Source of the DNA: Fibrobacterales bacterium
Lineage (GTDB): Bacteria; Fibrobacterota; Fibrobacteria; Fibrobacterales; JAOPTW01
NCBI GenBank assembly: GCA_051532035.1
Contig: JAOPTW010000001.1
Location: 29,041-93,040, forward strand
DNA: 64,000 bases
Direction: 5' to 3'
Shown: piece by piece, positions 3,098-32,719 of the stretch
Position numbering within the stretch: the stretch's first letter is position 1
Layout of the letters: each line of letters begins with the position of its first letter
Notes under the pieces: model-generated
What the model was told of the DNA's origin: nothing
Seen by the model: only the letters and a program-made list of their open reading frames with translations
The model's database searches: none
Program-made: the position numbers and the translations under genes

Positions 3098-3703
3098 TTG
3101 GGAATATTATTAGTGTGCGCTATTGCTTTTTCATTATTTTTTATTGGGTGTCCAAAGGACCTTAAAACGGTCGGTACTGTTGATATTAGTAAATTGATTA
3201 CTCAAAAGGATCTTGCGGAGATGGGGTATGAGAAAGCGGTTGATTCGCTTTTGGGGGAGATTGTTACGGTTTCTGGGTTAAAACACATAAGTGTAACAGG
3301 TGATGTAGGTATGGTAAAAGAACGTAATATGTGTGATCAATACTTTTATATGGCAGATGAATATAATAAAAATTTTCGACCAGTAAAAATAAGCGGATAT
3401 ACGACAGCAATTTCAGGGCTATTTAATTTGAATAGTAATCAGATTAAAGGAATCTTTAGCCATTCAAAAAATGTTTCCACATCTATGGATGTGGAGGAAC
3501 CTACATTTTTTAAGCAAGATGTATGTGATCCTGGGCCAAATAATCCAGAGCCATATAAGAATACTCCAGAATTTACTCGTGAAACAAATACTAATATCAT
3601 AAATAGCCCTGACTTGATCGTGACGGGAAAAATTGTTGAAATCCATGGGAAGCCTGGGAAAAATATCACCCTTTCCATTCGAGCGATAGGTATTAGTTAT
3701 TAG
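3098..3703 (+). CDS. Hypothetical lipoprotein (candidate immunity protein)
   Basis: TTG start after GGAGG; hydrophobic signal ending in lipobox-like FIG-C; converges on the 998 aa gene. Confidence 0.7.
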   Translation: MGILLVCAIAFSLFFIGCPKDLKTVGTVDISKLITQKDLAEMGYEKAVDSLLGEIVTVSGLKHISVTGDVGMVKERNMCDQYFYMADEYNKNFRPVKISGYTTAISGLFNLNSNQIKGIFSHSKNVSTSMDVEEPTFFKQDVCDPGPNNPEPYKNTPEFTRETNTNIINSPDLIVTGKIVEIHGKPGKNITLSIRAIGISY

Positions 3704-3721
3704 TATTTTTAAAATTTCAAG

Positions 3722-3763
3722 AAAATAAAGTGCTATGGGATTCATCCCATAGCACTTTATTTT
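3722..3763. terminator. Bidirectional terminator (20-bp perfect inverted repeat)
   Basis: AAAATAAAGTGCTATGGGAT-tc-ATCCCATAGCACTTTATTTT, overlapping the stop codon of the 998 aa gene. Confidence 0.85.
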
Positions 3764-6753
3764 TGCACACTTATTACAAAATCTGAACCTTCTAACAGGG
3801 TAAAAGCTTTTGAAGTAGCTTTAGTAAGGTTTTGATCTCCACAGAGTTGAAAGAGTGGATAAACTTTACATTCTGTACTTCCCTCATCCCAATCTGTAAC
3901 ATCATTTTTATCGATTACAAGAGAACCATAGATTTGTTGACCGATAAGAGTTGTGTCTGCTAATTTGTATAAATTCCAATGATTGCCTTTAACTTTTATG
4001 TTGCCGTCCATCCAGCCAATGTTTTCTTCTCTCAATTTAACCCAAATCTGTTTGTCTAGATAGTTATTGATTTGGATATTGTATGTTATAAATTTATTTG
4101 AGTGAAGTATATGTGAATTCACTTTTACTTCTGGTTTAGAAATGCTTAAATGTTCATTAAATAATGAAATCTCATTCTTCTTTCCAGGTTCCTTAATTTG
4201 AGGGGCAACCTTAAACACATTGTCGTCATGGCCCTTGAAGAAATCGTGATTGGCACTAAGTTCAAAGAGAGATATTATGTTTTTATCATCATCAGTCTGT
4301 TGGACTTCTTCAGTCTCTCCATCTTTATCAACTAGCTTATCCAAAGTAAATTTAATATGGCAAACTAATGCCCATTTTCCTTTATTAGGTTCAGCACATT
4401 CTTCAACAACTAATTTTAAGTCATCAAGGTATTCTAAATTAGCTCCATTAGATGGAATAACTTTCAGTAACCCTTTTGCATCATCAAGTCCAGGTTTGTC
4501 ACAAACATCTAATGTTTGAAGCTCAAAGGAGGTCCACTCACCAATAACAATAGAATCTTTAGCTCCTTCTGAAAATCCGATATTTTTTCCAAATTTAGAT
4601 TCATAAAACATGATTTCTTTTTTAGGTAATTCAATTCTATCCATAAAGGGGAGTGAAAGATACGATTCATCTCCAAAAACTATACGGTCTTTATTAACAT
4701 CATATAATTTACCGGTAAGGAAGTTATATTGAAGTTGTAGATACGAGAGCTGAAAACAAAATTTACCATCTATTTGAAGTGATGCTGTTGGGTCCCAATC
4801 GAAATCAGCTTCACCATCTTTTGTCGACCACTCTAGGGAGAAAGAAATCCCTGCACTTTTTGTGAGGCTCGCTTGTACGTATGCCTTCACGGCAAGTGCT
4901 TCAAGAAGGTCTTGTAATGGAGCAAGTAAATCCTGTTCGCCATTGTCTTCACCAAAAGTGTCATCGCCATTGGCATCTTTAAGAGAAGCTATTTCACTTG
5001 CAGCCATTGTCCAAACAGCTTGAAGAATGACATCTAAACTTATTTTTCCTTCGCCGGAAATGCCTATGCTAAAGGTATGCTTTGTGCCACCATCATCTTC
5101 ATCTTTCTGATCGTAGCTCACCTTAAATTTAATTTCTGCACTAGCACTGAGTTTAACTTGAAAGTTCAGAAAACCAAAAAGTATCAAGCCACATGGCTGT
5201 GGGAAAACTTTTTTTGACTTGCCTTCGAAAATACTTAATTCAACGCCAAAGGTTGTAGAGTTATCCTTAGTTGTATCACTCTTTAACTTGTTAAGTACTT
5301 TCTTAAAGTAGGTATCGCCATCTTGGCTGGTCATTTTCATTTCATCAGAAAACTCATTACCAATATTTTTAAGTAATGGCCAAAAGTATCCTTTCTTTTT
5401 AGTACCGACCTGCCTCATACCTTTTGCTAAAGCAAGAGATTCTGTTTTTGTTTTAGAAACAAACTCTTTGTATTTGAAATCCGGCCCTAGAATGCCAGCT
5501 TTAATTGCTGCTTTATATGCATGACCGAGAACTTCTGTTAACTTTTCAAAATTTTCGGCTTCTTCAATCGTTTTCTTTATTGAGGTAAAGTTATCAAAAC
5601 CTGCAACAGCATAGGCTGCAAGTATTTCTGCAGCTCCAACATTGTCAATAAGAAAATCAATAGTTTTCAAACCTTTTTGCAATTGCTTTCTATCTTTGCC
5701 CTTCGCTGCCATCTTTGCTTGTGCGAAAAGGAGAACACCACTAAAAACTGATACAGCAGTGGAGATACTGAGAAGTGATACCCAATTGATTTCTTTGGGC
5801 TCAGCGGCTTTATATGAGCTAGGTGTGATTTTATTAATGAGTTGTATTGACTCCTTAGGGATTAAGGCAATAAGCATTAGATTTTTGTTGCCGCTAATGA
5901 TTCTATCACGCCTCCATGTATGATTTTGGTAAGTTTGCGGATTATTTCTGTCATTTCTAATGGGGTCTAAGTTATTCATATTGGTCATTAGGGCATCATT
6001 GTCCATTTCAACCAACATATTAGACTTGAAATTTGATTCAAAGTCGTAGTCTGCGTTTCGTGCCCAAATTTTTAAATAACAACCAGCGGTATAATCATTT
6101 GGATTATATTTTTCACCATATTTTTCATGTATCTTTTTAAGACGTTCTGCTTGCCCTTTTTGAGAGTGATCATTGCGAACATCAACATAAAATTTATATT
6201 TTATTACACCGTCAGTTTCTGTATCTACTAGAATATCTTGGGTAATTTGCTTATTTTCAGTATCATGTCTACGAGATACAAGTTTTTGGTCTGCTCCATT
6301 AATTTCACCAAAAAAGAATCCAATTCTAGGGAAATCATCAACTACCCAACCATTTTCATCAACCGCTTTACCAATAGAAGGGGGTTGTAAAAAAGACCAT
6401 ACTTCTGCATTAGGCCATGTTTCCGCTCTGCCTGGAAGGTACGATCCTCCAGGGGTGATTTCTAGAATAACCCACTGTCTTACGGAGTTACAAAATACAC
6501 CAGAATGCTTATTCTTTCCACTATACTGGAGGCTTGAATTATTTTCAATTACGAGTGTAGGTTTGTTATCATCATCTTTGTCTGTTTCAACTTCAAGGTA
6601 ATCACCAATCTCTTTTTTGTATTCATCCGAAAAATCAAGTTGTGGATTTTCATGCGTTTTATCAAATGATTGTTCGGTGTCAGTCCAGTAAATTCTTACA
6701 CCCTTCCAGCTTTCTTGGGAGGTGTTTATATTTTTAAATGCTTTAGATGTCAT
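3757..6753 (-). CDS. Large hypothetical protein, candidate T6SS cargo effector
   Basis: 998 aa ORF, no signal peptide, central hydrophobic helix, beta-rich middle region; last gene of the DUF2169-PAAR operon. Confidence 0.6.
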   Translation of the reverse strand: MTSKAFKNINTSQESWKGVRIYWTDTEQSFDKTHENPQLDFSDEYKKEIGDYLEVETDKDDDNKPTLVIENNSSLQYSGKNKHSGVFCNSVRQWVILEITPGGSYLPGRAETWPNAEVWSFLQPPSIGKAVDENGWVVDDFPRIGFFFGEINGADQKLVSRRHDTENKQITQDILVDTETDGVIKYKFYVDVRNDHSQKGQAERLKKIHEKYGEKYNPNDYTAGCYLKIWARNADYDFESNFKSNMLVEMDNDALMTNMNNLDPIRNDRNNPQTYQNHTWRRDRIISGNKNLMLIALIPKESIQLINKITPSSYKAAEPKEINWVSLLSISTAVSVFSGVLLFAQAKMAAKGKDRKQLQKGLKTIDFLIDNVGAAEILAAYAVAGFDNFTSIKKTIEEAENFEKLTEVLGHAYKAAIKAGILGPDFKYKEFVSKTKTESLALAKGMRQVGTKKKGYFWPLLKNIGNEFSDEMKMTSQDGDTYFKKVLNKLKSDTTKDNSTTFGVELSIFEGKSKKVFPQPCGLILFGFLNFQVKLSASAEIKFKVSYDQKDEDDGGTKHTFSIGISGEGKISLDVILQAVWTMAASEIASLKDANGDDTFGEDNGEQDLLAPLQDLLEALAVKAYVQASLTKSAGISFSLEWSTKDGEADFDWDPTASLQIDGKFCFQLSYLQLQYNFLTGKLYDVNKDRIVFGDESYLSLPFMDRIELPKKEIMFYESKFGKNIGFSEGAKDSIVIGEWTSFELQTLDVCDKPGLDDAKGLLKVIPSNGANLEYLDDLKLVVEECAEPNKGKWALVCHIKFTLDKLVDKDGETEEVQQTDDDKNIISLFELSANHDFFKGHDDNVFKVAPQIKEPGKKNEISLFNEHLSISKPEVKVNSHILHSNKFITYNIQINNYLDKQIWVKLREENIGWMDGNIKVKGNHWNLYKLADTTLIGQQIYGSLVIDKNDVTDWDEGSTECKVYPLFQLCGDQNLTKATSKAFTLLEGSDFVISVQK

Positions 6754-6771
6754 AAATTGTCCAAGTAAACA

Positions 6772-7920
6772 TTAACGTTTTTTCATATTCGGTTCCGTAT
6801 ATGTGAAGGAACCAGTAATATATTTATGGTCTGTCCCATCTGATATATCTTTATCGCGTTTCCCATCAAGACTAGTAGAGTCCTGTAGCATGTCGCCAGG
6901 GTGGACGGCTGCTTTCCCATTGTAAAAGAAGGTTTCGCCTTTTATACCCCATGTTGCGCTGTTAAACCTACATGGTAGAACTTCAAAAATATCATCTGGA
7001 TTTTGAAGTTCCTTGTCTATATACCATCTTTCAGGCTGTTTGGGATTATAGGCCGTAAATTGTTTAGGGTTGTCAAATGGGTCTAAGATTTTCGTAAAAT
7101 CACTATAGAGAGTAATTGCAAATAAATCGAATGGATAGTAGTAGGTACTGCCACTTAAAAAAGGCAGTCTCGTATCAGGGTACTGATCTTTATACAACTC
7201 ATAGAGTAAATGTGGAAGAGGGTTATAGTCATCTGTCCACGATGGAATCTGCAACTCTACCCCTTCTTCTAAAGGCTTTTTAAAATCATCACTTAATACA
7301 TCTTTGTTGAATTCAAAAAGAGGTATAGCTGAAGGAAACCCCCATGAGTATGCTATTGCATTAAGGTTTTCTCCTTTTTGAGTAATATGAGTCAATGGTA
7401 AAATTGAAAAAGAATACCAAGGATGACTACATTTATATTTACTCCACCAATCATTTCTAAAAATGGTGTCAGCCCAAAAAACGCCTTCAAATTTTGTGTC
7501 AAATGTATATCCGTCATTTTCTGGTTCATCGATTGAATATGTCATTCCTTCATAATAATCAAGTCGTTTTAATTTTCGAATATCATATTCTTCATCAGGA
7601 TGAAAGGGGATTGGAGAGAGGTTACCTTCGGCATCTAGCTCTTGGTCTGAAGCTCCTTTAATGATCATATATTTAGAGGGCATTAAATTAGGGTTATTAT
7701 CGGATTCATTCTCGGGGGCATTGAAATGTTTAACTGCAAGATCACACATGTAGTCATAGTTTAGTGAATATGCTCCTAATAGGGCTGCACCAAATCCTTT
7801 TTCGTCCTCAATCTCTGTTAATATCCTTGCAGCGTATTTTATAGTAAATTCAGGAATTATTTTAAAACTGTTTTCATAGCCTGACCATATTCGATTTTCA
7901 GTTTGAAAAAAATCTGACAT
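6772..7920 (-). CDS. Hypothetical protein with internal LysM-like motif
   Basis: HITQKGENLNAIAYSWGF...LFEFNK...LEEGVELQIP resembles LysM; start overlaps the PAAR gene stop. Confidence 0.55.
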   Translation of the reverse strand: MSDFFQTENRIWSGYENSFKIIPEFTIKYAARILTEIEDEKGFGAALLGAYSLNYDYMCDLAVKHFNAPENESDNNPNLMPSKYMIIKGASDQELDAEGNLSPIPFHPDEEYDIRKLKRLDYYEGMTYSIDEPENDGYTFDTKFEGVFWADTIFRNDWWSKYKCSHPWYSFSILPLTHITQKGENLNAIAYSWGFPSAIPLFEFNKDVLSDDFKKPLEEGVELQIPSWTDDYNPLPHLLYELYKDQYPDTRLPFLSGSTYYYPFDLFAITLYSDFTKILDPFDNPKQFTAYNPKQPERWYIDKELQNPDDIFEVLPCRFNSATWGIKGETFFYNGKAAVHPGDMLQDSTSLDGKRDKDISDGTDHKYITGSFTYTEPNMKKR

Positions 7921-9008
7921 TACTCTTCCTCCGGTAACACTTCAATAGTTGCTTGACCAGGAGGTACATCCTCTAATTCTATCTTCCCATCTCCGTCAGT
8001 TGTGCCTTCTACTATAGCGCCGGTTGCAAAATGGACTTTTACCCTTCTCTCTGCAATAGGTGTATCTTTTGGGTCAAGTACTGTGGCAGTAAATATTGCG
8101 GTAATTTTAACTGCAGGTGCAACTGCAATTAAATGTTCTGCAATTACATAAGCGTTTAAACCTGATAATTCAATATCATCATTACCTATTACATCGAAAA
8201 TATGATCCTCAGTCAAAGTCCACTCAACCTCAACAGCCTCACCAGATATCTCAGCATCAATAGTCTCGAGTACATGTTGATCTTTATTATTGACCAGAGC
8301 CATAATCTGAACCTTACACGGTCCATCCTCAAATCCAGGCGCCTCACAAGTAATTGTAACTGCTTCATCCTGTTGTACCGGATCAGAACCAATCTCCGCA
8401 TTACACAAATCCTTAACTTTAATCTCAACACTTCCAGCCTCAGCATACCCTTCATAGTGTGCTTCACCCTCAGAATTACTCGTTCCAATAAGCTCTTCAC
8501 CAGCAGGATCAGTCATAGTAAAGGGAACACCATTAACTGGTTTACCGGCTGCATCTAAAAATTCTACATCAACAATGTGAAGTTCAGTAGGCTCTGTAAG
8601 CTCTTTTACTTCCATGGCAGTTATGCCGCCCGGGCCTTTCGTCGCGGCTTTAGCAGCGCTTGCAGCAGCGGCTGCGGCACCACCGCCTCCACCTCCGGCA
8701 CCAGGGCCGATAAGTACGGTCATCTCACCAAGGATTATGGTTGATGGGGGGCCAACACAGACTGCCATATCGCCCATTACTGCTGCTGGCATTTTACCAA
8801 TGAGTACGGTTGGGGAACCGGGTCCACTGATAGGGCCACCAACGTGGGGGATAGGGGCAGGCGCAGGTGTGGCCATCGGACACATATGCATATCTGTTAA
8901 CCGGGCTGCGGGCATTTTTCCGATCATTACTGTCGGACATCCTGGGCCACTGATCATACCGCCGTGCGCGGTAGAATCCATGAGTCGTGCGGCTGGTTTA
9001 CCGGCCAT
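7920..9008 (-). CDS. PAAR-domain spike protein with C-terminal extension (two transthyretin-like modules)
   Basis: PAARLMD / PAARLTD / PAAVMGD motifs, Gly/Ala linker, then two 'LD..G/D.P....GT...G' modules. Confidence 0.9.
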   Translation of the reverse strand: MAGKPAARLMDSTAHGGMISGPGCPTVMIGKMPAARLTDMHMCPMATPAPAPIPHVGGPISGPGSPTVLIGKMPAAVMGDMAVCVGPPSTIILGEMTVLIGPGAGGGGGGAAAAAASAAKAATKGPGGITAMEVKELTEPTELHIVDVEFLDAAGKPVNGVPFTMTDPAGEELIGTSNSEGEAHYEGYAEAGSVEIKVKDLCNAEIGSDPVQQDEAVTITCEAPGFEDGPCKVQIMALVNNKDQHVLETIDAEISGEAVEVEWTLTEDHIFDVIGNDDIELSGLNAYVIAEHLIAVAPAVKITAIFTATVLDPKDTPIAERRVKVHFATGAIVEGTTDGDGKIELEDVPPGQATIEVLPEEE

Positions 9009-10083
9009 TGAACACCTCCATACCGAATTTAAATTCAGAAAAATTTTTCATAGACTCCACACCTTCATAAAAGCTTGAAGCACGCCAGACCAGGGTAAGT
9101 TGATTGGTCTCTTTGTGGATCTCTACGGTCTGAATAACAGTATCCATAATTTGAAGTCCGGTGCCGACATTAAGCCATGCCTTCATAGTAATACCGGGAA
9201 GTTTACATTCAAATTTGGGATGTTCTGCATCCATGTACATCATTCTGATTGTTTCGTCGCCCTTGAGATACGGAAGTCGCATCCCTGTTTGGGCACTGTT
9301 GTAGAATAAGGGATTGATTAAAGGGGTTGGGTCGCCGAGGGACTGGGGGTCAGCACCATTAGCCAGCTGTTCTTTTCTGGCCGCTTCATTAGCGATGTGT
9401 TGTTCCATAGGTAGTCCTGCGTGTAAATATCGTGGGTAGCTATTTTTTGCTACAGGCCCTAACCCTACAGGGTCAGGTGCTTTTTTCCAATTATTATAAT
9501 CTTTGAGAATCAGTTTCTCAGGGGTCAGTAAGTTATAAGGGTCTTCTAGGTTAGGGAGCTCAAGATCATGTAGAGAGTCAGCTTTCTCTTTAACAACAAA
9601 GCCTTTCCCTGCGGGATTTTTCTGATAGGTATATTGCACACCCTCATCCGACTTATCATCGATGCCACCATAGGCTAAGCCAGAGTGGATAGGCATCTCA
9701 TCAAATAATTCGGGTTCGGTAAATTCAAATCCAAAGGGTGTTTTATTTACCTTTCGGTTTCCAAAAACTCTAATCTGTTTTATAAAGTTGCCAATACCAA
9801 CGGCAAGATCAAAATACTTGGCTCGCTTCCCATTGGGAGCTATTGCCTTTCCTTTAAACAGAACGTCAGTTGCAGGCTTAAATGCCACAAGATCTGATTC
9901 ATGTTTAATGGGATCAGTAATGGGGTTGTCACCATAATACTCATCACTATCGTGAAAAGGAATAGGTGATTCTTTGTCGATTTGAGCAATAAGACCATGT
10001 TCGAAATTGAATGTCTCTTTCCCAAGCACTGACAATATGGGCGTACCGTCTGGTGATGTTCCTGGGATTATTCTCGTAAACAT
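8998..10083 (-). CDS. DUF2169 family T6SS adaptor, copy 1
   Basis: HESDLVAFKPATDVL, AYGG, NPAGKGF, LPNLEDP, LTLVWRA motifs; overlaps the PAAR start. Confidence 0.88.
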   Translation of the reverse strand: MFTRIIPGTSPDGTPILSVLGKETFNFEHGLIAQIDKESPIPFHDSDEYYGDNPITDPIKHESDLVAFKPATDVLFKGKAIAPNGKRAKYFDLAVGIGNFIKQIRVFGNRKVNKTPFGFEFTEPELFDEMPIHSGLAYGGIDDKSDEGVQYTYQKNPAGKGFVVKEKADSLHDLELPNLEDPYNLLTPEKLILKDYNNWKKAPDPVGLGPVAKNSYPRYLHAGLPMEQHIANEAARKEQLANGADPQSLGDPTPLINPLFYNSAQTGMRLPYLKGDETIRMMYMDAEHPKFECKLPGITMKAWLNVGTGLQIMDTVIQTVEIHKETNQLTLVWRASSFYEGVESMKNFSEFKFGMEVFNGR

Positions 10084-11469: not shown

Positions 11470-11516
11470 GAATAGACTTTAGAGGCGCCCTCAAAGTGTA
11501 GTATGGTGATTAATTG

Positions 11517-14545: not shown

Positions 14546-15865
14546 ATGATAAAGAAAATTTCTTGGTTAGAGGGAATGGCACTGCTTCCCCATCATTTTC
14601 AGCAGGCAGAAAAGTATTATGAATCACTTATTTCTTCTAAAATTATTGCGCTTAATCCAAATTCATTTGGCTTTACTTCCTTAACTGTAGACTCTTATGC
14701 CCTTTCAAATGGGGTGTTTTCTATTCAAGAGTGCAAAGGGATTTTCCCGAGTGGTCTCTTTTTTGAGTCTAATGACGTGGAAAATCTTGTCGAATCCCGT
14801 TCAGTAGGTGAGATGTTCCCTGCAGAGAAAGAATCTCTTGATGTCTTTCTTGCTGCACCACTCCAAGAAGAAACTAAAGCAAATGTCACTGATGACAAAC
14901 AATCAAGCTCTGCGCTTTTTATAAAAGATCAAAAAGCGGTTCCCGATGTTAATACCGGATCTAACTCAAAAGCGGTCACTTATTCAAAGTTAAACTTGAA
15001 AATTGTGTTTGAAGGTGAACAAATAACGGGGTATGAGGTCTTAAAAGTTGCAGAACTTAAAAGAAACTTACAGGCTCAAATTGCGGTGAGTGATACATTT
15101 ATGCCTATTACTTTGGCGCCGATAGCATCTCCGTATGTGCAGCAGAGTCTGAAAAAGGTCATTGATAAAGCTACTGAGAAACAGACGTGGCTTATCGGTC
15201 AAAATTTGGTGATGGGCGGAGAGAATCTATCCAGTTGCCTGCTTCTTTTGACACTGAATCAGTTTTTACCGGTGCTGAATAGTTATTATATAAATTCAAA
15301 TACATCGACAGAGCAACTCTATATTAAGCTTTTGGAGTTTGCCGGAGCCCTTTGTACTACCAATCCTGTAGTAAAATCTAATGAACTCCCTATTTATAAT
15401 CATGCAAGTCAGCAGCACTGCTTTGAAAAGCTGTTTGATGGACTTAAAGCACTGCTCGAAGCATCAGTGGACCTACGTTATGAATTGACAAAAATGAAAC
15501 AGAGCACAGCAGGTGAGTATCAGGGTGATTTAACCAATGCAAACCCATCAATATACTCTGAAGTATTTCTTGCCATTGACTCTCCACTTGATACCCAGAC
15601 ATTGGTAACTCAAGTGAAGCAGATTGGTAGAGCGGCGCCAATCGCTAAACTCAAGAGCCTTGTTGTATCGGCTCTTCCGGGAATTGATATTGATTATGTT
15701 CTCGATCCACCACTTACAATTAGCCCTAAACCAGAAAAAACCTATTTTAAACTATCCAATACTCATCCGCTGTGGAATGAAGTGGTTGCAACTCGAATGT
15801 TTGGGCTGCATCTTCCTCCTGCAATTACTGTTACTGCAGTTGAAATTATTGGACTTAAATCTTAA
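14546..15865 (+). CDS. tssK: T6SS baseplate subunit TssK
   Basis: N-terminal WLEGMALLPHHFQQ; LVVSALPGI; first gene of the T6SS operon. Confidence 0.93.
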   Translation: MIKKISWLEGMALLPHHFQQAEKYYESLISSKIIALNPNSFGFTSLTVDSYALSNGVFSIQECKGIFPSGLFFESNDVENLVESRSVGEMFPAEKESLDVFLAAPLQEETKANVTDDKQSSSALFIKDQKAVPDVNTGSNSKAVTYSKLNLKIVFEGEQITGYEVLKVAELKRNLQAQIAVSDTFMPITLAPIASPYVQQSLKKVIDKATEKQTWLIGQNLVMGGENLSSCLLLLTLNQFLPVLNSYYINSNTSTEQLYIKLLEFAGALCTTNPVVKSNELPIYNHASQQHCFEKLFDGLKALLEASVDLRYELTKMKQSTAGEYQGDLTNANPSIYSEVFLAIDSPLDTQTLVTQVKQIGRAAPIAKLKSLVVSALPGIDIDYVLDPPLTISPKPEKTYFKLSNTHPLWNEVVATRMFGLHLPPAITVTAVEIIGLKS

Positions 15866-15885
15866 AAGAGTATAAAAGGCAGACA

Positions 15886-16503
15886 ATGAATAGTTCTTTT
15901 ATAAAGCACGCTGCTCCCTTAATAAATATGGGGGTTCAGATTCAAAGCATTCAATTTGAGTCGCCAGCAAAGTTGCAAGAAGATATCCTTGAAAAAACCG
16001 AAGCATTTGTCGAAGCTGCAACAGCAATGGGGAAGAGTGGAGGTGAAATTGAAGAGGCGAAATATGGCCTCTTATCTTTTCTTGATGAACTCATTTTTAA
16101 AAACAGTAGTATTGGGTATGAATGGCTTGAATATCGCCTTATGATGAAGGTATTTAACGATCAGCTCGCTGGTGAAAGCTTTTTCACAAAATTTGATACC
16201 TATGTGAAGGATGATACGAAACGAGATTTAGCTGAATTCTATGGGGTATTGATGCTTCTTGGTTTTCAAGGAAAGTTTCAGCTCGAGGGCCTTGAAGGGC
16301 TCCAGCTTAAAATTAAAGAGGTAACAGATCTACTGTACCCTAATGCAGAAGGGGCGGTCCCTGACCTCTCAAAATTTGCAACCATAGCTCCAGGGGCGCT
16401 CCCTCGTGAAAAAAGTGGAAAGTCGTTTCTACTCTACGCATTTGGACTGGTAATTCTCTCGGGAATTGCATATATGGCACTTCTTACACTCGCTCAGGTA
16501 TAA
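15886..16503 (+). CDS. tssL: T6SS membrane protein TssL (DotU), no OmpA domain
   Basis: AKYGLLSFLDE, DQLAGESFF, LLGFQGKF, C-terminal TM helix. Confidence 0.9.
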   Translation: MNSSFIKHAAPLINMGVQIQSIQFESPAKLQEDILEKTEAFVEAATAMGKSGGEIEEAKYGLLSFLDELIFKNSSIGYEWLEYRLMMKVFNDQLAGESFFTKFDTYVKDDTKRDLAEFYGVLMLLGFQGKFQLEGLEGLQLKIKEVTDLLYPNAEGAVPDLSKFATIAPGALPREKSGKSFLLYAFGLVILSGIAYMALLTLAQV

Positions 16504-16520
16504 CAGAAATAGGAAAATTA

Positions 16521-19500
16521 ATGAAAGCGATAAAATCACTCTTTTTTTGGATCTGCGTAGGTATCATAGCTCTTGCTGTAGGTTTTTACTTTACGGCACC
16601 TATGATGGGCCTCGAAGACTCTCTCTATAACATACTCATTTCCGCTGCTATTGCAGTCCTTGGGCTCTCAATAAGTTTTATCATAAAAATGAAAAAGCAT
16701 TATAACTCTATTCAAAAAAAGAAGCCTCAGTCAAATGCTGCTGAGTGGGAGACGAGTTGGCAAAAGCCTTTGGCTGATGAAACCAAAGAAATTCTCAAGC
16801 GTATTCAAGAGGTGTATAAAAAGACCAATGTTAGTATCGAGAAAACGAAATTCTTTCTGGTTATTGGACAAAAAGGCTCAGGTAAAAGTACCCTTATTCG
16901 TGAAAGTGGCCACCATATGCGCTATATCTTTCCGACAGCTCGCGATAAACAACAGAGAAGAAAAATATTTTTTAATTGGAGTGTTTCTGATAATGCTGTC
17001 TATATAGAAGCACCGGCTGATTACCTTGCAAATGGTGATAAAGTAGCCCAAGAACTCCTCTTTTTATTAGAGCTCCTCAAAGATGAACCGAAGAAGAAAA
17101 CTCTCGATGGTATCATTGTAACAGAGAAAGTACACGATTTAGCAGATAAGGATAATGCTAAGGCTCGTGCTCAAGTTAATAGAAAAACGGTTGAAGGAGT
17201 TATGGCTCAGATTCAACTTGAACTTCCTGTCTATGTTGCGCTCACCAACCTCGACACCCTTCCTGGCGCTAAATTATATTGTGATGCCCATGAAGAGAGT
17301 TTTTTAAATCAAAGTTTTGGTGTTTCTATTAAGCACTCTGAAGCAAAGGATACCCGGTCAGTTTTTGATAAACGGTATGGTGAGCTCCTTGATGGGCTCT
17401 ATGATAATCAGATGTTTAGTATGTATTCTCAACAGAAAAAAGGCATTGCTCCTGTTGAGACATATGCATTTGTTCGCGGCCTTGAAGAACGTCGAGCTAC
17501 TATTGGTGACTATGTAGAGATACTCTGTAAAAAAGGCTTGACTAAAGAAATAAGTTATTTTCGCGGACTCTATTTCACTGGTGTTGAATCAGTTGCAAAA
17601 GATCAGCCACAAGCAGCACCGGCTGCACCTGCACTCGACCCTTTTGGAGGGGCTGCTTTTTTTGAAGACGAAGGCGCGGTTTCTGCGGCAGCACCAGAAA
17701 TGAGTGCTATTGAAGAGCCGGAGCCGGTACTTGGTGGTCTCAGTTATTTTGCACATGCTTTTCTCGCGTGGGTTGAGGGTGAAAAAGAACTTGTTCGCTA
17801 TCCAAAATATCGTCAAAGTAGTATGTCTCGCTCTGCTGCGCTCATCTCATTTTTATTGTTTCTTGGGGCTGCAGGCGTTGCAGGGTATGGAGTATATGGT
17901 TTTACGATGAGTAAGGTGTTGCTGAATAGATGGGAAGAACTCGTCAATGATGCACGTCGGCTTAAGTGGAGTCAACCCAAAACAATTATTCGAGAATTTT
18001 CAAAATATGATGGATTGCGCTTGGCAATTGAAGATATCGAAGAGAACCGATCGCTCACAATTGCTCCAGGCTTTTATCCCGATGGTAAGATTTTACCGAA
18101 AGCAGAGAAAAAACATATTGTACTTTCTCATGCCTTAACGCGAAATTGCCTTAAGACTCTCGAAAAAGACCTCAATAATAAATTGACTGCAGGGGTCAGA
18201 GATTCTGAGAGAACTGAAGTCTATAACGATTTTAGATTGTATGCATCATTGACTACAGCAGGGAAGGGACATTATGATAAAATGAATGTTGATTCTGTTG
18301 GTGCGGGCCTTGCAAGAAAGTGGTATAAGCTTTTAGGTATTACCCCATATACTGCTTCACAGCATATTAAAGAGACGCTGCCTTTGAATGCGCGCCTCTA
18401 TGTTCAGTACTTAATCGATGAGCGGGTGCATAAAGGAAGTAAACTCTATGTTGCAAACCCTGCACTTGTTAAAAAGGCACGGAGAGCTTTAGCTGGTGAG
18501 AGTGAAGTTGAAGCTATTTATCAAGCAATGTTAGAGGCGGGTAATAGTGCGCCAGCACTGCGCTTATCTGATCTCGGAGTTGAAGAGAATAGTATTATTG
18601 TAAACTCGGGTGAAATTCCTGCGGCTTATACAAAAGTAATGTACGATTCGGTTATCAAGCCGTTCTTTACTAAAACAAATAGTGCTCAAGGAGATTGGGT
18701 TTTAGGTAAAGATAAAGAGACGTCGACGGTAAGTAAGGATTTGGAAGAGAAAGTGATGACCAAGTATTATCGCGATTATGCCTATACTTGGAGAAGTTTT
18801 ATTAAAAATATTAAGACAAAACGGACCCCAGATCTTCAAAGGCTTTCAGAAAAGCTTATAGCGCTTGCAAGTGCATCTCAAGATGAAACACTACTTGGTC
18901 TTCGGGCGTTTATAGAAAATGTTTCTCGAAATACAAATCTTGTGGTGGACCTATCAGGGGCAAAAAATCTTGTAAATAAAGTGAGTGGTCCTAATAAAAA
19001 GCTGAATAATAAGATGAAAATTGTGCGTCGCTATCAAGATGATATACCGGAATCGATGCTCTCTCCACAAGAGCGACTTGCAAAAAAGTTTAGTGGTTTT
19101 TCAGTACTTACAGGAGAAATTCGGGGCAAAAAGTTCGATGACTATTTTGAGGACCTTGTAAAAACATCAAAATTTTTGATTGAAACTACAGGGAATCCAG
19201 ATGAAGCGGTCACCTTTTTAGGTGAACTTTTTAAAGGAGACCGAAAGAACCCAGCAAATCATGCCTATGCGGCCGCCCAGGCTTATATTGATGAAGTACC
19301 TGCACGTCAGCAAGATCTCCTTAAAAGTACGCTTCTTCTTATTGTAAGAGAGGTTGTTAACTCAGTGGTTTCGTATGCATCGATTGGCTTACAAGAAGAG
19401 TATGAAAAACAGGTAGTAACTAACTATGAGTCCTATTTGCAATCATCTTTTCCGTTTGATCATGAAGAGCGAGAAAAGATGGCATCCCTTGAAGACCTTA

Positions 19501-20117
19501 CCTTTATTTTTGGCGGAAAATCGGGGACTTTTACGAATTTTTATAAAAAAATCTATGACTTTATAGACATGAAGAATGACTACTGTGGTTTAAGGGAGTG
19601 GAAAGGAATCTCAATGCCCTTTTCAAGTAAAGCTCTTAAAGGTATTCATAAAGCATTTAAGATACAAGAAGCACTCTTTCACCCCAATGTTGATCGATTG
19701 AGACAATATCAATTGAAACAAAAGTTTATGGCAGTTAAAAGGGCAAACCTTGTAATGCGCTATGGTAATGAAGAGTACTCTGTTATGCGTGGCGAAGATC
19801 AAAAGGTATTTACTATGAAATGGCCTGACCAAAAACTTGAAGGCATTTCAGTTGAAGTAGAGACCGTTGACGATACTTACACAAAAAATTACAAAGGTGT
19901 ATGGGCTTTGATTTCTATGGTTAGAGATATTGGTGAGAAGCGAAATCAAAACAGTATAGAGATTAATTGGCCAATAAAAGCGAAGTCTTATTACATCAGT
20001 GTTGACGGAGAGATTCAGGTTGATCGCCGATTTAACCCACTCATTGTCAGAGATTTTTTCGTGTTACCAATAGAATACACATTGGTTGAAGAGGCGAATT
20101 TAGAAGAAAAAGAGTAA
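16521..20117 (+). CDS. tssM: T6SS membrane protein TssM (IcmF)
   Basis: 1198 aa; N-terminal TMs, Walker A GQKGSGKST, LPVYVALT, FRGLYFTG, YYRDYAYTW, FPF, GVWAL. Confidence 0.9.
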   Translation: MKAIKSLFFWICVGIIALAVGFYFTAPMMGLEDSLYNILISAAIAVLGLSISFIIKMKKHYNSIQKKKPQSNAAEWETSWQKPLADETKEILKRIQEVYKKTNVSIEKTKFFLVIGQKGSGKSTLIRESGHHMRYIFPTARDKQQRRKIFFNWSVSDNAVYIEAPADYLANGDKVAQELLFLLELLKDEPKKKTLDGIIVTEKVHDLADKDNAKARAQVNRKTVEGVMAQIQLELPVYVALTNLDTLPGAKLYCDAHEESFLNQSFGVSIKHSEAKDTRSVFDKRYGELLDGLYDNQMFSMYSQQKKGIAPVETYAFVRGLEERRATIGDYVEILCKKGLTKEISYFRGLYFTGVESVAKDQPQAAPAAPALDPFGGAAFFEDEGAVSAAAPEMSAIEEPEPVLGGLSYFAHAFLAWVEGEKELVRYPKYRQSSMSRSAALISFLLFLGAAGVAGYGVYGFTMSKVLLNRWEELVNDARRLKWSQPKTIIREFSKYDGLRLAIEDIEENRSLTIAPGFYPDGKILPKAEKKHIVLSHALTRNCLKTLEKDLNNKLTAGVRDSERTEVYNDFRLYASLTTAGKGHYDKMNVDSVGAGLARKWYKLLGITPYTASQHIKETLPLNARLYVQYLIDERVHKGSKLYVANPALVKKARRALAGESEVEAIYQAMLEAGNSAPALRLSDLGVEENSIIVNSGEIPAAYTKVMYDSVIKPFFTKTNSAQGDWVLGKDKETSTVSKDLEEKVMTKYYRDYAYTWRSFIKNIKTKRTPDLQRLSEKLIALASASQDETLLGLRAFIENVSRNTNLVVDLSGAKNLVNKVSGPNKKLNNKMKIVRRYQDDIPESMLSPQERLAKKFSGFSVLTGEIRGKKFDDYFEDLVKTSKFLIETTGNPDEAVTFLGELFKGDRKNPANHAYAAAQAYIDEVPARQQDLLKSTLLLIVREVVNSVVSYASIGLQEEYEKQVVTNYESYLQSSFPFDHEEREKMASLEDLTFIFGGKSGTFTNFYKKIYDFIDMKNDYCGLREWKGISMPFSSKALKGIHKAFKIQEALFHPNVDRLRQYQLKQKFMAVKRANLVMRYGNEEYSVMRGEDQKVFTMKWPDQKLEGISVEVETVDDTYTKNYKGVWALISMVRDIGEKRNQNSIEINWPIKAKSYYISVDGEIQVDRRFNPLIVRDFFVLPIEYTLVEEANLEEKE

Positions 20118-20119
20118 AA

Positions 20120-20135
20120 AGTGATGACCGTCACA
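20120..20135. promoter_or_regulatory. CRP/FNR-like site, copy 4
   Basis: AGTGA-tgaccg-TCACA between tssM and tssA. Confidence 0.55.
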
Positions 20136-20256
20136 CTCAAAGGTGTCGGAATGTAAATTAGAATTAACACTTTCATTTTTATCTTGATAGTTGTTATATT
20201 CTTTCATCATAAGCTGATATTATAAACATTAAGTAAAAAAAGATACGACGAAAATT

Positions 20257-21906
20257 ATGAGTGAAGCAGTAGCAGAAGAAGAAAAAACAGTCACTGAAGC
20301 AGTTTCAAAAGAAGCAGTTGAGGCGATAAATTCTGAAGATAATTCTGAGGCCGTTGTCGATGACACTGCTCTGACTGTTGAACTCTGTACACCAATTTCA
20401 GACAGTGAACCTTGTGGAGAAGATCCAAAGTATAATCATGAATTTGAGGTTATTAAAGGTGAGATTGCAAAACCTGGTGCTCGTGATTTTGAGGTAGTAG
20501 CTCAAAACTGTCATATTGTATTAACAAAACAAGCTAAAGATATTACCACCTTTTCATATTATATCTTAGCATCGGCAATGGATAATGGCATCGAAGATTT
20601 TTGTTCTGTCATAATCGCTTTCTCACGACAGTTAAGTGAACATTGGGAAACAATACATCCTACCCGTGAACGTGCGCGTATGAATTCGATCTCATGGCTT
20701 AATGAAGAACGTACTCTTGGCATGCTTGAAAAGGTTGAGGTTTCAGAAGCGAATCACTCTCTACTCCTTTCTGCAAAAGATGCATTAGAGAGTATTAAAA
20801 CCCTCACATTCGAAAAATTCCCTGACTCACCACCATCTATTAAAGGGTTGGTACAGCGGGTAGAAAAATGGGTTAAGTCGACAAAACCACAAGAGATAAA
20901 AGCTGATGCTCCTGCACCTACAGCAACAACCTCTTCAGCAGCAGCTCCTTCAAGTCAGGGAAGTACTCCTATGGCTGATATGGGGAGTAAGACAGATGCT
21001 CAGAAAAATCTTCAAAAAATAGCCATTTTCCTTTCAGCTCAAGAAAATTCAAATCCTTTGGGGTACAAACTGCTCCGTATGGTTAAATGGCAAGAATTAC
21101 AATCTGAGCCTAAAGCAGAAGCAGGTAAAACGCTTTTTGCCCCTCCTATTGCACAGCGTGTAAGTTTTTATCAAAACTTAGTACAGCAGCAAAATTGGGA
21201 TGGAGTTATAGAAAAGTCTGAAACAGTTTTTACTGAACCGGGACTTCACTTTTGGTTTGATTTACAGCACTATGTTTGTCAGGCTCTCACAGCAAAAGGT
21301 GGAACCTATGCTCAGTGTGCTACGGCAATAAAAACAGAACTTGTTGGGCTTCTCAGTAGAGTTCCGACGCTTAAAGATTTAAAGTATAAAGATGACACCC
21401 CGTTTGCGAGTAGCCAAACAAAAGAATGGCTTGATGAAATCGCATCCGAAGTGGGAGGAGGGAGTTCTACTCCTTCTCAAGTATCGACTAAAAAATCTGC
21501 AGACCTCGAAACAGATATGGTAACAGCAGAAGAGATGCTTGGAAAAGGGAAATTTGAAGATGCACTCTTTTTAATTCAGTCAGGTTGTGCCTATGGAAGT
21601 TTAAAAGAAGTGTGCGAAAGAAAAACAGTTATGGCACGTATGTGCTATCAGAATAACCAGCATTTTATTGCTGACAGTTTATTGAGTGAACTTGATGAAG
21701 AAATTCAGAAAAGATCGCTCGTAGAGTGGGACTCTGACTTCTGTATAGAAGTTTGGACCCAGCATATCAAAGTACTCTCTACAATTACCGAGATGAGTAC
21801 CGTTGATGTTGCAGATAAAGAGGCTATTAAGATTCGTTTACGTAATACCTATAAACGTTTAAGTAATGTAAACCCCCTTTCGGCAACGAAACTTAATTTT
21901 GTGTGA
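20257..21906 (+). CDS. tssA: T6SS TssA (ImpA_N + VasJ-type domain, long form)
   Basis: PISDSEPCGEDPKY..EF, AKD, WETIHP; HFWFDLQ, LKYKDDTPFAS. Confidence 0.92.
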   Translation: MSEAVAEEEKTVTEAVSKEAVEAINSEDNSEAVVDDTALTVELCTPISDSEPCGEDPKYNHEFEVIKGEIAKPGARDFEVVAQNCHIVLTKQAKDITTFSYYILASAMDNGIEDFCSVIIAFSRQLSEHWETIHPTRERARMNSISWLNEERTLGMLEKVEVSEANHSLLLSAKDALESIKTLTFEKFPDSPPSIKGLVQRVEKWVKSTKPQEIKADAPAPTATTSSAAAPSSQGSTPMADMGSKTDAQKNLQKIAIFLSAQENSNPLGYKLLRMVKWQELQSEPKAEAGKTLFAPPIAQRVSFYQNLVQQQNWDGVIEKSETVFTEPGLHFWFDLQHYVCQALTAKGGTYAQCATAIKTELVGLLSRVPTLKDLKYKDDTPFASSQTKEWLDEIASEVGGGSSTPSQVSTKKSADLETDMVTAEEMLGKGKFEDALFLIQSGCAYGSLKEVCERKTVMARMCYQNNQHFIADSLLSELDEEIQKRSLVEWDSDFCIEVWTQHIKVLSTITEMSTVDVADKEAIKIRLRNTYKRLSNVNPLSATKLNFV

Positions 21907-21939
21907 ATTTAGAACATAAACTAAAAAGGAGAGAGCGCT

Positions 21940-22464
21940 ATGGCAGGCTCAAGTTATCAAAATGAAATACCACCGGCTCGCGTCAATATTCAATTGAGCG
22001 TCGATAAAGGTGATGGTCAAAAAAAGATGGAACTTCCACTAAAAATGCTAATTCTTGGTGATTTCACTGGTAAAAAGGACTCTACACGAGTTACTGACCG
22101 TGAAAAAATCAATATTAACAAAAATAATTTTAATCAAGTAATGGAATCACTCGACCTCAAAGTGAGTACTGTTGTTGAAAATAAATTAAGTAAAGATGGC
22201 GGAGATATTAAAGTAAACCTCGATATTAAAAGCATGAAAGATTTTACTCCTGCTGAGGTTGCTCGTCAGGTGCCAGAAGTTTCAAAACTAATGGCTGCAC
22301 GAAATCTTATCAGAGATCTTGGGTCGAATTTACTTGATAATCGTGAATTCCGTAAAAGAATGGAAGCGATTGTTAAAGATAAAACTGCAATGGAGAGTCT
22401 CTTAGCTGAACTCGACAAAGTACAACCACTTAAAGAAGATGCACCAGCTGCAGAAGCTGAATAG
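21940..22464 (+). CDS. tssB: T6SS sheath small subunit TssB (VipA)
   Basis: PPARVNI, ELPLKMLILGDFTG, MKDFTPAEVARQVPE. Confidence 0.96.
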   Translation: MAGSSYQNEIPPARVNIQLSVDKGDGQKKMELPLKMLILGDFTGKKDSTRVTDREKININKNNFNQVMESLDLKVSTVVENKLSKDGGDIKVNLDIKSMKDFTPAEVARQVPEVSKLMAARNLIRDLGSNLLDNREFRKRMEAIVKDKTAMESLLAELDKVQPLKEDAPAAEAE

Positions 22465-22475
22465 AGGAGAGTATA

Positions 22476-23957
22476 ATGGCTGAACAAGGCTTAGAATATA
22501 TTTATGAGTCAATGAATCTTGATCTTCCGGAACAAGAAGTTGACCTCAATAATTACAAAGAATCAGAAGCTCTTTTTGATCAATCAGCAAATGAGCGCCT
22601 CGGAGCAGCACTTCGTATATTTATCGAAAGTGTTTCTGAATCTGCTACATCAATTGATAAAATTGATAAAGCAATGATCGATGCGCAAGTTGCATATATT
22701 GATGAAAAAATTTCTGCACAACTTGACGAAATTTTTCACAATGAAACATTTCAAAAACTTGAGTCTTCTTGGAGAGGATTAAAGTTTCTTGTTGATCGCA
22801 CAAACTTTAAAAAGAATATCAAAATCGAAGTACTCAACGCTTCTAAAGAAGATATGGTAGAAGATTTTGAAGATTCACCAGAAATTATTCAATCTGCACT
22901 CTACAAACATGTGTACACAGACGAATACGACACCCCAGGTGGAGAACCTCTTGGTGCAATCGTTTCTAACTATGAATTTGGTTCTACTCCAATGGATATT
23001 AACCTTCTTCAAAACCTTTCAAGCGTCTCTGCTGCAGCTCACTGTCCATTTGTTGGTGCTGTTGGCCAAAAATTCTTTGGTAAAGATGATATTAATGAAT
23101 TACCACAAATTGAAGACCTTGAAAACTATATGGATCGTGCAGAGTATACAAAATGGCGTTCATTCCGTGAATCAGAAGATTCTCGTTATGTAGGTCTTGT
23201 ACTTCCACGTTTCCTCCTTCGTCACCCGTATGATCCTGAAGCGAACCCGGTTCGTGAGTTTAACTATCAGGAAAAAGTTACCGGCGATGATCATGAAAAA
23301 TATCTCTGGGGTAATGCATCATTCTCATTTGCAGCAAATATGACTCGTTCATTTGCTGACAACGGATGGTGTGTTCAAATCAGAGGACCACAAGCTGGTG
23401 GTAAAGTTGAAGACCTTCCAATACATCTCTATGATGTAGGTAAAGGTAATCAAATGAAAATCCCAACAGAGATTCTTATTCCTGAAACAAGAGAATTTGA
23501 ATTTGCTAATCAAGGATTTATTCCACTCAGTTTTTATAAAAATTCTGATTATGCATGTTTCTTCTCTGCGAATTCTACTCAAAAACCAGAAGAGTACGAT
23601 TCACCAGAAGCAACTGCAAATTGCAGAATCAATGCACGTCTTCCATACATATTCTTGACATCACGTCTAGCACACTACCTCAAAGTGCTTCAACGTGAAA
23701 ACATTGGTGCAACAAAAAGTGCTACAGTGTTACAACAAGAGTTGAATACTTGGTTATCTGGTCTTGTAACAGAGATGCAGAATCCAAGTCCGGAACTTGC
23801 AGCGACACACCCACTCAGTTATGGAGAGGTAACTGTTGAAGAAAATGAGGATAATCCAGGATTCTTCAAAGTAGGAATGTCGGTTATACCACACTTTCAA
23901 GTAGAAGGTATTAATGTAAACCTCTCATTGGTATCTAAAATGCCGCAAGGCAAATAA
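22476..23957 (+). CDS. tssC: T6SS sheath large subunit TssC (VipB)
   Basis: FQKLESSWRGLKFLV, EYDTPGGEP, IRGPQAGGKVEDLP, RLAHYLKVLQRENIG. Confidence 0.97.
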   Translation: MAEQGLEYIYESMNLDLPEQEVDLNNYKESEALFDQSANERLGAALRIFIESVSESATSIDKIDKAMIDAQVAYIDEKISAQLDEIFHNETFQKLESSWRGLKFLVDRTNFKKNIKIEVLNASKEDMVEDFEDSPEIIQSALYKHVYTDEYDTPGGEPLGAIVSNYEFGSTPMDINLLQNLSSVSAAAHCPFVGAVGQKFFGKDDINELPQIEDLENYMDRAEYTKWRSFRESEDSRYVGLVLPRFLLRHPYDPEANPVREFNYQEKVTGDDHEKYLWGNASFSFAANMTRSFADNGWCVQIRGPQAGGKVEDLPIHLYDVGKGNQMKIPTEILIPETREFEFANQGFIPLSFYKNSDYACFFSANSTQKPEEYDSPEATANCRINARLPYIFLTSRLAHYLKVLQRENIGATKSATVLQQELNTWLSGLVTEMQNPSPELAATHPLSYGEVTVEENEDNPGFFKVGMSVIPHFQVEGINVNLSLVSKMPQGK

Positions 23958-24019
23958 AATTAAACTTAAACTTAACCACTAAACACTAACTAAACAAATA
24001 ATTAAAAAAGGATATAAAA

Positions 24020-24487
24020 ATGGCAATTCCAGCATATATGACAATCGATGGCATCCCAGGATCAGTAGCAGTAGCAGGTCGTGAAGACACTGTAGAAGTG
24101 CTCCAGTTTGATCACCAAGTATACATCCCAGTAGACCGTGATAACGGTAGCCTTACTGGTACACGTAAACATGGTGCTCTTGTTATCCATAAAGCATTCG
24201 ATAAATCATCTTCAATTCTTTATCAACGTGTTTGTACTGGTGAAACAATTGCAAACATCAAAATCACATGGTATGAAATCACTGATCAAGGTGAAGAAAA
24301 AGCATACTATGAACACATTCTTGAAAACTGTAAAATTTCTTCAGTTCAGTCTTACATGCACAATGTTAAAGACAAAAGCAAAGAGCAATTTGTTCATCAA
24401 GAAGAAGTAACAATCCGTTATGAAAAAATCACTTGGAACTTCCTTGATGGTAACTTGCAGCACACTGACCAGTGGAATGCACGTTAA
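24020..24487 (+). CDS. hcp: T6SS tube protein Hcp (TssD)
   Basis: MAIPAYM, GSLTGTRKH, FDKSS, YEKITW. Confidence 0.96.
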   Translation: MAIPAYMTIDGIPGSVAVAGREDTVEVLQFDHQVYIPVDRDNGSLTGTRKHGALVIHKAFDKSSSILYQRVCTGETIANIKITWYEITDQGEEKAYYEHILENCKISSVQSYMHNVKDKSKEQFVHQEEVTIRYEKITWNFLDGNLQHTDQWNAR

Positions 24488-24538
24488 TAACGGCTCATGT
24501 TTTGAATGACCTCTTTTGAGGTCTTTCATCTACATTGA

Positions 24539-24590
24539 GGCCTGTCGTGTGGGTCAATTATTGGCTATTATACTCGGCAGGCCCTTTTTT
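24539..24590 (+). terminator. Internal terminator/stem-loop after hcp
   Basis: GGCCTGTCG...CGGCAGGCC stem followed by TTTTTT; a second hairpin GACCTC-tttt-GAGGTC lies just upstream. Confidence 0.65.
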
Positions 24591-24607
24591 AATGTGTACA
24601 GAGAACT

Positions 24608-25048
24608 ATGGTTGGATCACGTAAAATAGAAGAGAGTCTCTTCGAAAAAATATCACAGCATTATGCTGATGGAACTCCACTCAGTGCAGTACCTCAGGAA
24701 GCACGACTCGTAAAAAGTATTAGTGACCATGTGACGCGTTTACTGAACACTCGTAAAGGAACTGTTCCTCACATGCCGGATTATGGACTCACTGATGTAA
24801 GTGAAATATATTCCAATTTACCGGGAAGTATTGAACAACTTCAACGAGAAATGACAACATTAATTAAAAAGTATGAACCAAGACTCGAAAAAATTAGAGT
24901 CGAAGTACTTCCTTTTGACCCATTCAGTTTTAAAATTGATTTTAATATACATGGAGTTATTAAGGGGGGACAACGGGTATTTTTAACAACAGCTTTTAGC
25001 GCCAATGGACAAGTTTCAGTAGAGTCTAAGAGAAAGAACTATGGCTGA
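24608..25048 (+). CDS. tssE: T6SS baseplate subunit TssE (gp25-like)
   Basis: RLLNTRKG...PDYGL.D, IKKYEPRL. Confidence 0.93.
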   Translation: MVGSRKIEESLFEKISQHYADGTPLSAVPQEARLVKSISDHVTRLLNTRKGTVPHMPDYGLTDVSEIYSNLPGSIEQLQREMTTLIKKYEPRLEKIRVEVLPFDPFSFKIDFNIHGVIKGGQRVFLTTAFSANGQVSVESKRKNYG

Positions 25049-27793: not shown

Positions 27794-27801
27794 AGGAACC
27801 T

Positions 27802-30549: not shown

Positions 30550-30557
30550 GAGGAACT

Positions 30558-32711: not shown

Positions 32712-32719
32712 GGGTTCGT

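Follow-up and report, generated by a model that had tools for sequence, protein, structure and literature searches.

What kind of protein ends a type VI secretion system (T6SS) spike operon when its sequence resembles none of the catalogued toxin families? The question is raised by a 64,000-nucleotide stretch of contig JAOPTW010000001.1 (assembly GCA_051532035.1, positions 29,041 to 93,040) from a Fibrobacterales bacterium of the phylum Fibrobacterota, which was analyzed at its full length and is referred to here as the window. On its reverse strand, at 3757..6753, an open reading frame encodes a 998-residue protein (P0001), which an initial annotation, made from the letters alone, had placed last in a run of genes, in fact tightly packed, for DUF2169, PAAR, a 382-residue protein and the 998-residue protein itself, and had taken to be a membrane-inserting or pore-forming T6SS cargo of an unrecognized family. 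Order and coordinates of this run are confirmed by the open reading frames and by Pfam, and the sequence segments quoted at the time are present, starting at residues 324, 530, 560 and 633. As read from sequence, we conclude that P0001 belongs to a real and previously unnamed family of T6SS effectors of about 965-1400 residues, which has its own LysM loading partner and a convergent, arrayed lipoprotein as its immunity candidate.

An unnamed family and its cassette

The notion that the protein is an orphan has to be abandoned, since a phmmer search against 1.84 billion representatives gave 26 matches including the protein itself, 17 of them at E<=1e-10 and mostly of 965-1400 residues. The family is nonetheless unrecognized, as had been proposed: P0001 has no match in Pfam, NCBIfam or PHROGs, no PDB sequence scores better than E 0.48, and no Pfam family is common to more than one of the 51 aligned effector rows. 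This alignment retains 51 of 59 rows, those more than 85% identical having been removed and short fragments omitted, and it takes in the shortened and partly frameshifted rows L056, L070, L019 and P0026 as well as L005 without its last 24 residues. P0001 is alone in its 90% cluster, and word-index protein searches gave one match (the protein itself) and two matches, respectively, but it is recovered at E 9.9e-152 by a family profile from which the window's row was left out. Profile search locates the family in 20 of 296 genomes of the phylum, while pattern scans gave 24 loci in metagenomes and 20 in genome contigs, the latter mostly titled Fibrobacterota, with one from Oleispira and three from Bacteroidota that may be mis-binned. 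Of 301 genomes sampled from the order to which the Oleispira genome belongs, 2 carry the family, and no relatives were found in viral contigs or plasmids. In a tree of the N-terminal domain the window's row forms a long branch outside every well-supported group, and no donor or direction of transfer is claimed.

That the protein is a T6SS cargo is well supported by gene context, namely by PAAR and VgrG, TssC, the LysM partner and the lipoprotein. TssC is found in all 20 effector-carrying genomes as compared to 116 of 296 across the phylum (G253, which is among the 116, is an unpublished genome and serves as background only), although the lists were compared by eye and kin do not count as independent. 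Within the phylum TssC is unevenly distributed, being absent from all 101 genomes of the largest genus and present in 15 of 15 and 12 of 14 genomes of other genera, and in several genomes there is an additional, weak TssC-like match in a frame of ~550-640 residues. In the window, the T6SS core was identified by NCBIfam at 14546..33784 on the forward strand and comprises tssK, L, M, A, B, C, hcp, E, F, G, clpV, vgrG and a DUF2169 gene, the TssL and TssM matches falling below the curated cut-offs. In the genome, which is 91.75% complete, one PAAR was detected, located in the effector operon, and one VgrG, 24 kb from that operon. The initial annotation mentioned neither this core nor the convergent lipoprotein gene at 3098-3703 nor the LysM nature of the 382-residue protein.

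The cassette was tallied over 35 non-redundant loci, one per effector cluster. Immediately upstream of the effector lies the gene for the 382-residue protein (6772..7920, reverse strand), a candidate loading adaptor or co-effector with a degenerate LysM at residues ~176-226, and a homologue holds the same place in all 32 loci for which 300 or more upstream bases are available. Pfam recognizes LysM in 18 of 26 rows of this family though not in the window's copy, which a profile made from the LysM part of the remaining rows matches at E 3.7e-7. The LysM-family gene is furthermore fused to PAAR in L029, L033 and L082, and in P0015 and L096 the effector itself begins with a fused LysM; L036, L037 and L040 combine a PAAR extension that matches the LysM-adaptor family with another copy of this family ahead of the effector. 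The PAAR protein itself (7920..9008, reverse strand; PF05488, E 8.7e-20) carries C-terminal Ig/carboxypeptidase-regulatory-like repeats, for which the matches to Big_1 and CarboxypepD_reg are below cut-off, and a same-strand PAAR gene is found upstream in 11 of 14 loci with at least 5.5 kb, the exceptions being L030, L052 and L067. Next comes a DUF2169 chaperone (8998..10083, reverse strand; PF09937, E 8.8e-56), which also precedes PAAR in L031, L042, L049, L073, L077 and L078, and of which a second copy, 47% identical to the first, is found behind vgrG at 32720-33784 (E 1.4e-47). Single-domain DUF2169 proteins beside spike genes are reminiscent of the DUF2169-PIPY (DUF4150) spikes, and L030, where the module sits between ClpV/DUF4150/DUF2169 and VgrG, is a typical pentapeptide-repeat/DUF4150 arrangement. 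DUF2169 is however described as rarely adjoining PAAR genes (PMC11883445), and the genome of the window departs from this rule by having two DUF2169 genes, a canonical PF05488 PAAR and no match to PF13665 (DUF4150/PIPY), a search that was positive in the E. coli control.

On the other side of the effector, a gene on the forward strand (3098..3703) encodes a 201-residue lipoprotein with a lipobox at Cys18, which is a candidate periplasmic immunity protein. Of 18 complete loci, 17 have a homologue downstream in opposite orientation (the exception is L042), 8 of the 18 with 2-10 copies, and genome G281 has 12 matches to the lipoprotein profile. The lipobox cysteine is kept in 33 of 36 rows, further cysteines are conserved, and a profile without the window's row finds the window's gene at E 7.4e-31. 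Among 196 sampled genomes of the phylum the lipoprotein family occurs in 11, all of them effector carriers; the profile having been built from carrier loci, the informative part is the 185 genomes without a match. In the sampled carriers that lack it (G003, G004 and G044) the effector is cut by the contig end. The best PDB match of the lipoprotein profile, to a β-lactamase at E 0.008 over 49 residues, was judged to be due to chance, and an apparent OB-fold (tRNA_anti-like) likeness of the protein finds no support from Pfam in the 36 rows. Between the two convergent genes and overlapping the effector stop codon, a perfect hairpin of 20 bp, flanked on either side by A/T tracts (3721..3764), folds at -28.1 kcal/mol (z -7.8), equaled by none of 200 shuffles, and is probably a bidirectional terminator. 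Scans for promoters and terminators gave chance-level results, and the six short low-depth contigs that one RNA run yields here, of which one lies in the lipoprotein gene and one over the effector start, are no evidence of transcription.

A further indication of how these genes belong together comes from a genome of the same genus, G238, whose DNA aligns at 82-88% over positions 1-2996 and 7927-11548 of the window and not across 2997-7926. Between the two genomes, identity is 87-98% for DUF2169, PAAR and two flanking genes, whereas it is 29% for the LysM protein, 27% for the effector and 29-31% for the lipoprotein, and it follows from this difference that the latter three have been exchanged as one unit behind a fixed PAAR. 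The two gammaproteobacterial carriers likewise keep the order of the module. In L030, orphan copies of the last 100 residues of the effector, 78-79% identical to the effector of the locus, alternate with lipoproteins that are 70-92% identical among themselves, and other orphan effector fragments lie beside lipoproteins in L054 and L097. Tandem arrays of paralogous immunity genes are a described feature of polymorphic toxin loci, known as homogeneous polyimmunity loci (PMC3482391), and multi-copy immunity has also been described for the VP1388-90 module (PMC8728615). The co-occurrence with TssC, the restriction of the lipoprotein to carriers and the swap of the module all point to a toxin with its immunity protein, and we consider it highly probable that the cassette is an effector-immunity system. 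A mirror-identity test over 17 cassettes, in which lipoprotein identity tracks the sheet of the effector best (Spearman 0.65 versus 0.48-0.50), was not used, since the LysM protein tracks as well (0.57) and kin are not independent.

Domain architecture of the candidate effector

The structure model of P0001 has a pLDDT of 79.5 and a pTM of 0.50; a single-sequence fold (pLDDT 32) was unusable. As the initial annotation held, a signal peptide is absent, the best 10-residue Kyte-Doolittle (KD) mean in the first 40 residues being -0.47, and by the same test, which is crude and made without SignalP, none of 20 family rows has an N-terminal hydrophobic stretch (maximum 1.42). The protein starts with a β-rich domain (residues ~12-300; 5854..6720, reverse strand, as all coordinates in this section), which is its most conserved part, with a mean pairwise identity of 0.31 versus 0.16-0.21 for the other domains in 17 cassettes, and which may be a loading domain or an enzyme. 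Its conserved columns include the motifs QWxIxE, WxFLQP, DDxPRxGW, GSxLKxWxRN and RNHxWxR, and D140, N194, E222, K228, R232, D249, D263, H278 and R282 are near-invariant, the window's protein having Thr at the E222 column. No PDB sequence is matched by a profile of this domain, and a word-index search for it among longer proteins gave one match; combinations with other C-termini were weakly tested, and the phmmer matches showed no sign of them. The lack of a recognizable catalytic motif extends to the whole family, HExxH and HxKxxxxD being found in none of the 51 rows and GxSxG in 8.

The hydrophobic helix pointed out in the initial annotation (residues 324-346; 5716..5784; helix 324-351 in the model) opens a helical region at residues 300-491, of which 438-487 are poorly modeled. 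It is the only 19-residue window of P0001 with a KD of at least 1.6 (KD 2.04), no row has more than two such windows, and one centered at 310-355 is present in 33 of 51 rows, two of which are C-terminal fragments incapable of showing it. The long run of alternating β-strands also proved to be above chance: residues 495-700 contain three non-overlapping 18-residue windows against a shuffle mean of 0.25, a count reached by 2 of 1000 shuffles of P0001, and p<=0.05 is reached in 22 of 24 family rows. The same count is however reached by 21 of 2105 open reading frames of at least 300 residues in the genome. In the model these residues form a long amphipathic β-sheet (499-715; 4609..5259) with predicted strands at 499-517, 529-551, 557-579, 622-643, 649-669, 672-686 and 690-699 and a helical insert at 580-619, the amphipathic pattern being strict across the five long strands. 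A match of the sheet profile to another protein of the genome (G000:C27:101506-105243, E 0.0099) was rejected, as the profile matches reversed P0001 at E 0.0003. The C-terminus consists of an Ig-like domain (718-873; 4135..4602), which is the most variable part, and a second β-sandwich (875-998; 3760..4131) that is probably Ig-like, and fold alignments over 718-998 are to tandem Ig and S-layer proteins.

In the best 50 rows of a fold search with the model, the sheet matches fragments of outer-membrane barrels, and these rows contain no known β-pore toxin, TULIP or TamB, which excludes nothing. The resemblance to autotransporter translocators (EspP, Hbp, NalP), CymA and TamA is one of shape only, with predicted superpositions at rmsd 3.5-7 Å and 5-13% identity, and in contrast to these barrels the sheet corresponds to about half a barrel, is internal, and occurs in a protein with no signal peptide and no C-terminal aromatic β-signal. 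Neither Pfam nor PDB sequences match the family to aerolysin, hemolysin or MACPF/CDC toxins. Foldseek against PDB and viral models gave Ig and long-protein noise (query TM <=0.13), and the best ESM Atlas scores, 0.80 for the effector and 0.85 for the lipoprotein, are leads only.

How the effector may act

The LysM partner is very likely to load the effector onto the single VgrG-PAAR spike, probably through the N-terminal domain, because of the analogy with loci of Ketobacter and Burkholderia, where toxin and VgrG are bridged by LysM (PMC10673891). In the vgrG-LysM-Kalk_10455-Kalk_10450 locus of Ketobacter alkanivorans, LysM is encoded between spike gene and toxin and, as in our family, may be separate or fused to the toxin N-terminus, but it follows vgrG whereas the LysM gene of the family follows, or is fused to, PAAR. 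By gene order the family fits the LysM-adaptor class. Kalk_10455 was expressed from pETDuet for its assay, and the account consulted mentions no export tag. Once delivered, the effector would probably have its site of action in the periplasm, given that immunity proteins are located where the toxin acts (PMC9558359) and that the partner is a lipoprotein. The lipoprotein would then protect kin, and its extra, diverged copies would protect against the variants of relatives. With loading and periplasmic action granted, toxicity may well, on an even balance, arise through membrane insertion, in that the hydrophobic helix and the Ig domains would engage the membrane and the pre-formed amphipathic sheet would either close with other copies into a β-barrel or open a lesion. 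We infer such membrane insertion or pore formation from an amphipathic sheet and one hydrophobic helix that are found family-wide. The complete chain, in which an antibacterial T6SS cargo acts in the envelope of Gram-negative rivals by inserting into a membrane, is the explanation we tentatively favor. A more elaborate version seems doubtful to us, namely that half an outer-membrane barrel is delivered ready-folded and closes in the prey periplasm with copies of itself or with BamA/TamA to form a pore or a jam, that arrays of disulfide-rich lipoproteins (up to 12 variants) intercept it, and that the N-terminal domain is a new loading marker working with the LysM adaptor on the PAAR tip.

Several observations weigh against membrane insertion. 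A soluble, cysteine-rich lipoprotein fits a periplasmic enzyme equally well, and the immunity proteins of colicin-type pores are, unlike this partner, normally embedded in the membrane. The barrel alignments are only partial, and the predicted fold resemblance is generic, reflecting a barrel geometry that ties with many unrelated barrels. Furthermore, the conserved Asp, Asn, Lys, Arg and His residues of the N-terminal domain could, judged from the alignment, form a catalytic site. Periplasmic amidase and lipase effectors typically have lipoproteins as immunity proteins, and the N-terminal domain might act by cleaving or modifying peptidoglycan, a lipid or a lipoprotein, with helix, sheet and Ig domains serving to anchor or direct it. 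This idea, which we consider rather unlikely, draws on the conservation of the domain and its near-invariant polar and charged residues, and on the single homologous lipoprotein family that serves all members, since one such family argues for a toxic site common to them. A precedent is VP1390 of Vibrio parahaemolyticus, a large toxin outside the known families that acts in the periplasm and causes lysis, and whose periplasmic immunity protein is encoded in several copies (PMC8728615). The VP1388-VP1389-VP1390 system, compared by its description, is likewise a three-gene module of marine bacteria with a loading partner and often with multi-copy immunity, but VP1390 has OmpA_C, VP1388 has MIX and the immunity gene lies between them in one operon, whereas no OmpA is found in the 51 effector rows, no MIX in the 26 adaptor rows, and the lipoprotein gene is convergent. 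An enzyme is also in poor agreement with the absence of a catalytic motif and of any Pfam or PDB sequence match, with the many conserved Trp, Pro and Gly residues, as expected of a structural or binding core, with the Thr in place of E222, and with the fact that a cargo requires a loading domain, for which the N-terminal domain is the sole candidate.

If the sheet is what matters, it may alternatively jam an envelope machine, by pairing edge-on as a half-barrel with BamA/TamA or another barrel, or serve as a lipid-extracting groove; this we regard as improbable, as the fold rows mirror barrel geometry only, tying with many unrelated barrels, and as the sheet is internal, C-termini are variable and a C-terminal aromatic β-signal is missing. 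The two C-terminal Ig-like domains resemble S-layer and adhesin repeats, which together with the convergent orientation of the lipoprotein gene and its absence from one complete locus (L042) might suggest an adhesin or structural protein, exported by the T6SS or placed at the surface, that has the lipoprotein for a partner or receptor. Such a non-toxic function is nevertheless very unlikely, since no signal peptide was found by the crude test, and since diverged lipoprotein arrays, orphan fragments and replacement of whole modules are marks of toxin-immunity conflict (PMC3482391). Least probable of all is a diverged MIX/VasX-type effector, making α-helical inner-membrane pores through residues 300-491 with the β region binding a receptor as in Tke5. 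The family does share with Tke5 (PMC12909789) and TseMt (PMC13520059) a cargo of ~900-1000 residues, a β-rich N-terminus, a helical middle, adjacent adaptor and immunity genes and, by inference in our case, membrane toxicity from the periplasmic side, and Tke5 also ends in an Ig-like domain. MIX/VasX proteins (BTH_I2691) however have a colicin-like domain with 4-5 predicted transmembrane helices and a DUF4123 adaptor, whereas the family has one hydrophobic helix, a 200-residue amphipathic sheet, a LysM gene and a convergent lipoprotein. Neither the MIX motif hRxGhhYhh nor PF20249 (VasX_N) matches any of the 51 rows, and hhalign against 32 MIX regions gave a probability of 0.25% with a score of 15.6, within the shuffle range (maximum 16.8, n=30). 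The best local alignment with 9 MIX regions had set KxWxRN...W against the third MIX motif (probability <1%), a pairing that was gone with 32 regions. The MIX fold comparison used the whole-protein model; its list was taken up by other domains and hardly covered residues 12-300, and the PF20249 searches of the genome of the window, of G296 and of the phylum were made without a working positive control.

Related loci and significance

A number of other genes around the operon and in this and related genomes are noteworthy. A 1245-residue protein (G000:C27:101506-105986; L165:2507-6987) with OmpA, PG_binding_1 and Big_1 matches is followed by a MORN_2-repeat protein and shares its N-terminal 400-500 residues, at 34-49% identity, with six further loci (C37, C105, C89, C13, C30 and C22); from its sequence this group looks like a second, polymorphic effector-immunity family. 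At G000:C96:7429-13311 (L166) a 300-residue gene product is followed by a 1624-residue protein whose sole Pfam match is a LysM at the N-terminus (E 6.7e-5); it is a candidate for another LysM-loaded cargo. Related PAAR operons (L035, L042, L045, L049, L040 and L036) contain further cargo-like genes between or before PAAR and the LysM gene, which encode a phage-lysozyme/M23 protein (L049:2315-5284) and amidohydrolases (L035, L045) or are unassigned and have apparent lipoprotein neighbors. In the window, positions 1-816 (forward) encode the C-terminus of a 2366-residue protein (C1:22756-29856) with bacterial Ig/cadherin-like repeats that is probably an adhesin, and 931-2259 (reverse) a 442-residue protein of no family, 92% identical in G238, whose C-terminus has a faint resemblance to the sheath protein TssC (BLASTP E 0.057) that is not established. 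Between the operon and tssK lie genes for an NlpC/P60 lipoprotein (10951-11469, forward; E 3.3e-29), an ABC substrate-binding protein (11837-12754, reverse) and a 569-residue protein (12766-14475, reverse), which has a C-terminal FGE-sulfatase-like part with weak EgtB/GldK matches and which we take to be TagR-like.

The structurally described T6SS pore-formers Tke5, TseMt, Ptx2 and VasX are α-helical and colicin-like according to the accounts cited (PMC12909789, PMC13520059, PMC9558359). Searches of the open-access literature listed no family of T6SS effectors based on β-barrels or amphipathic β-structure, no paper on the effectors of the Fibrobacterota (Fibrobacteres) and no account of the present family. 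Should the protein turn out to be an ordinary periplasmic hydrolase or an α-helical pore-former, it would be one more unnamed effector family, whereas a half-barrel sheet, a loading domain of no assigned family and a new family of lipoprotein immunity proteins would add a mechanism and might point to a target in the envelope. The cognate and non-cognate lipoproteins of close genomes constitute a ready test of specificity, and the family shows active T6SS conflict in the Fibrobacterota, a phylum in which TssC is present in the above-mentioned 116 of 296 genomes.

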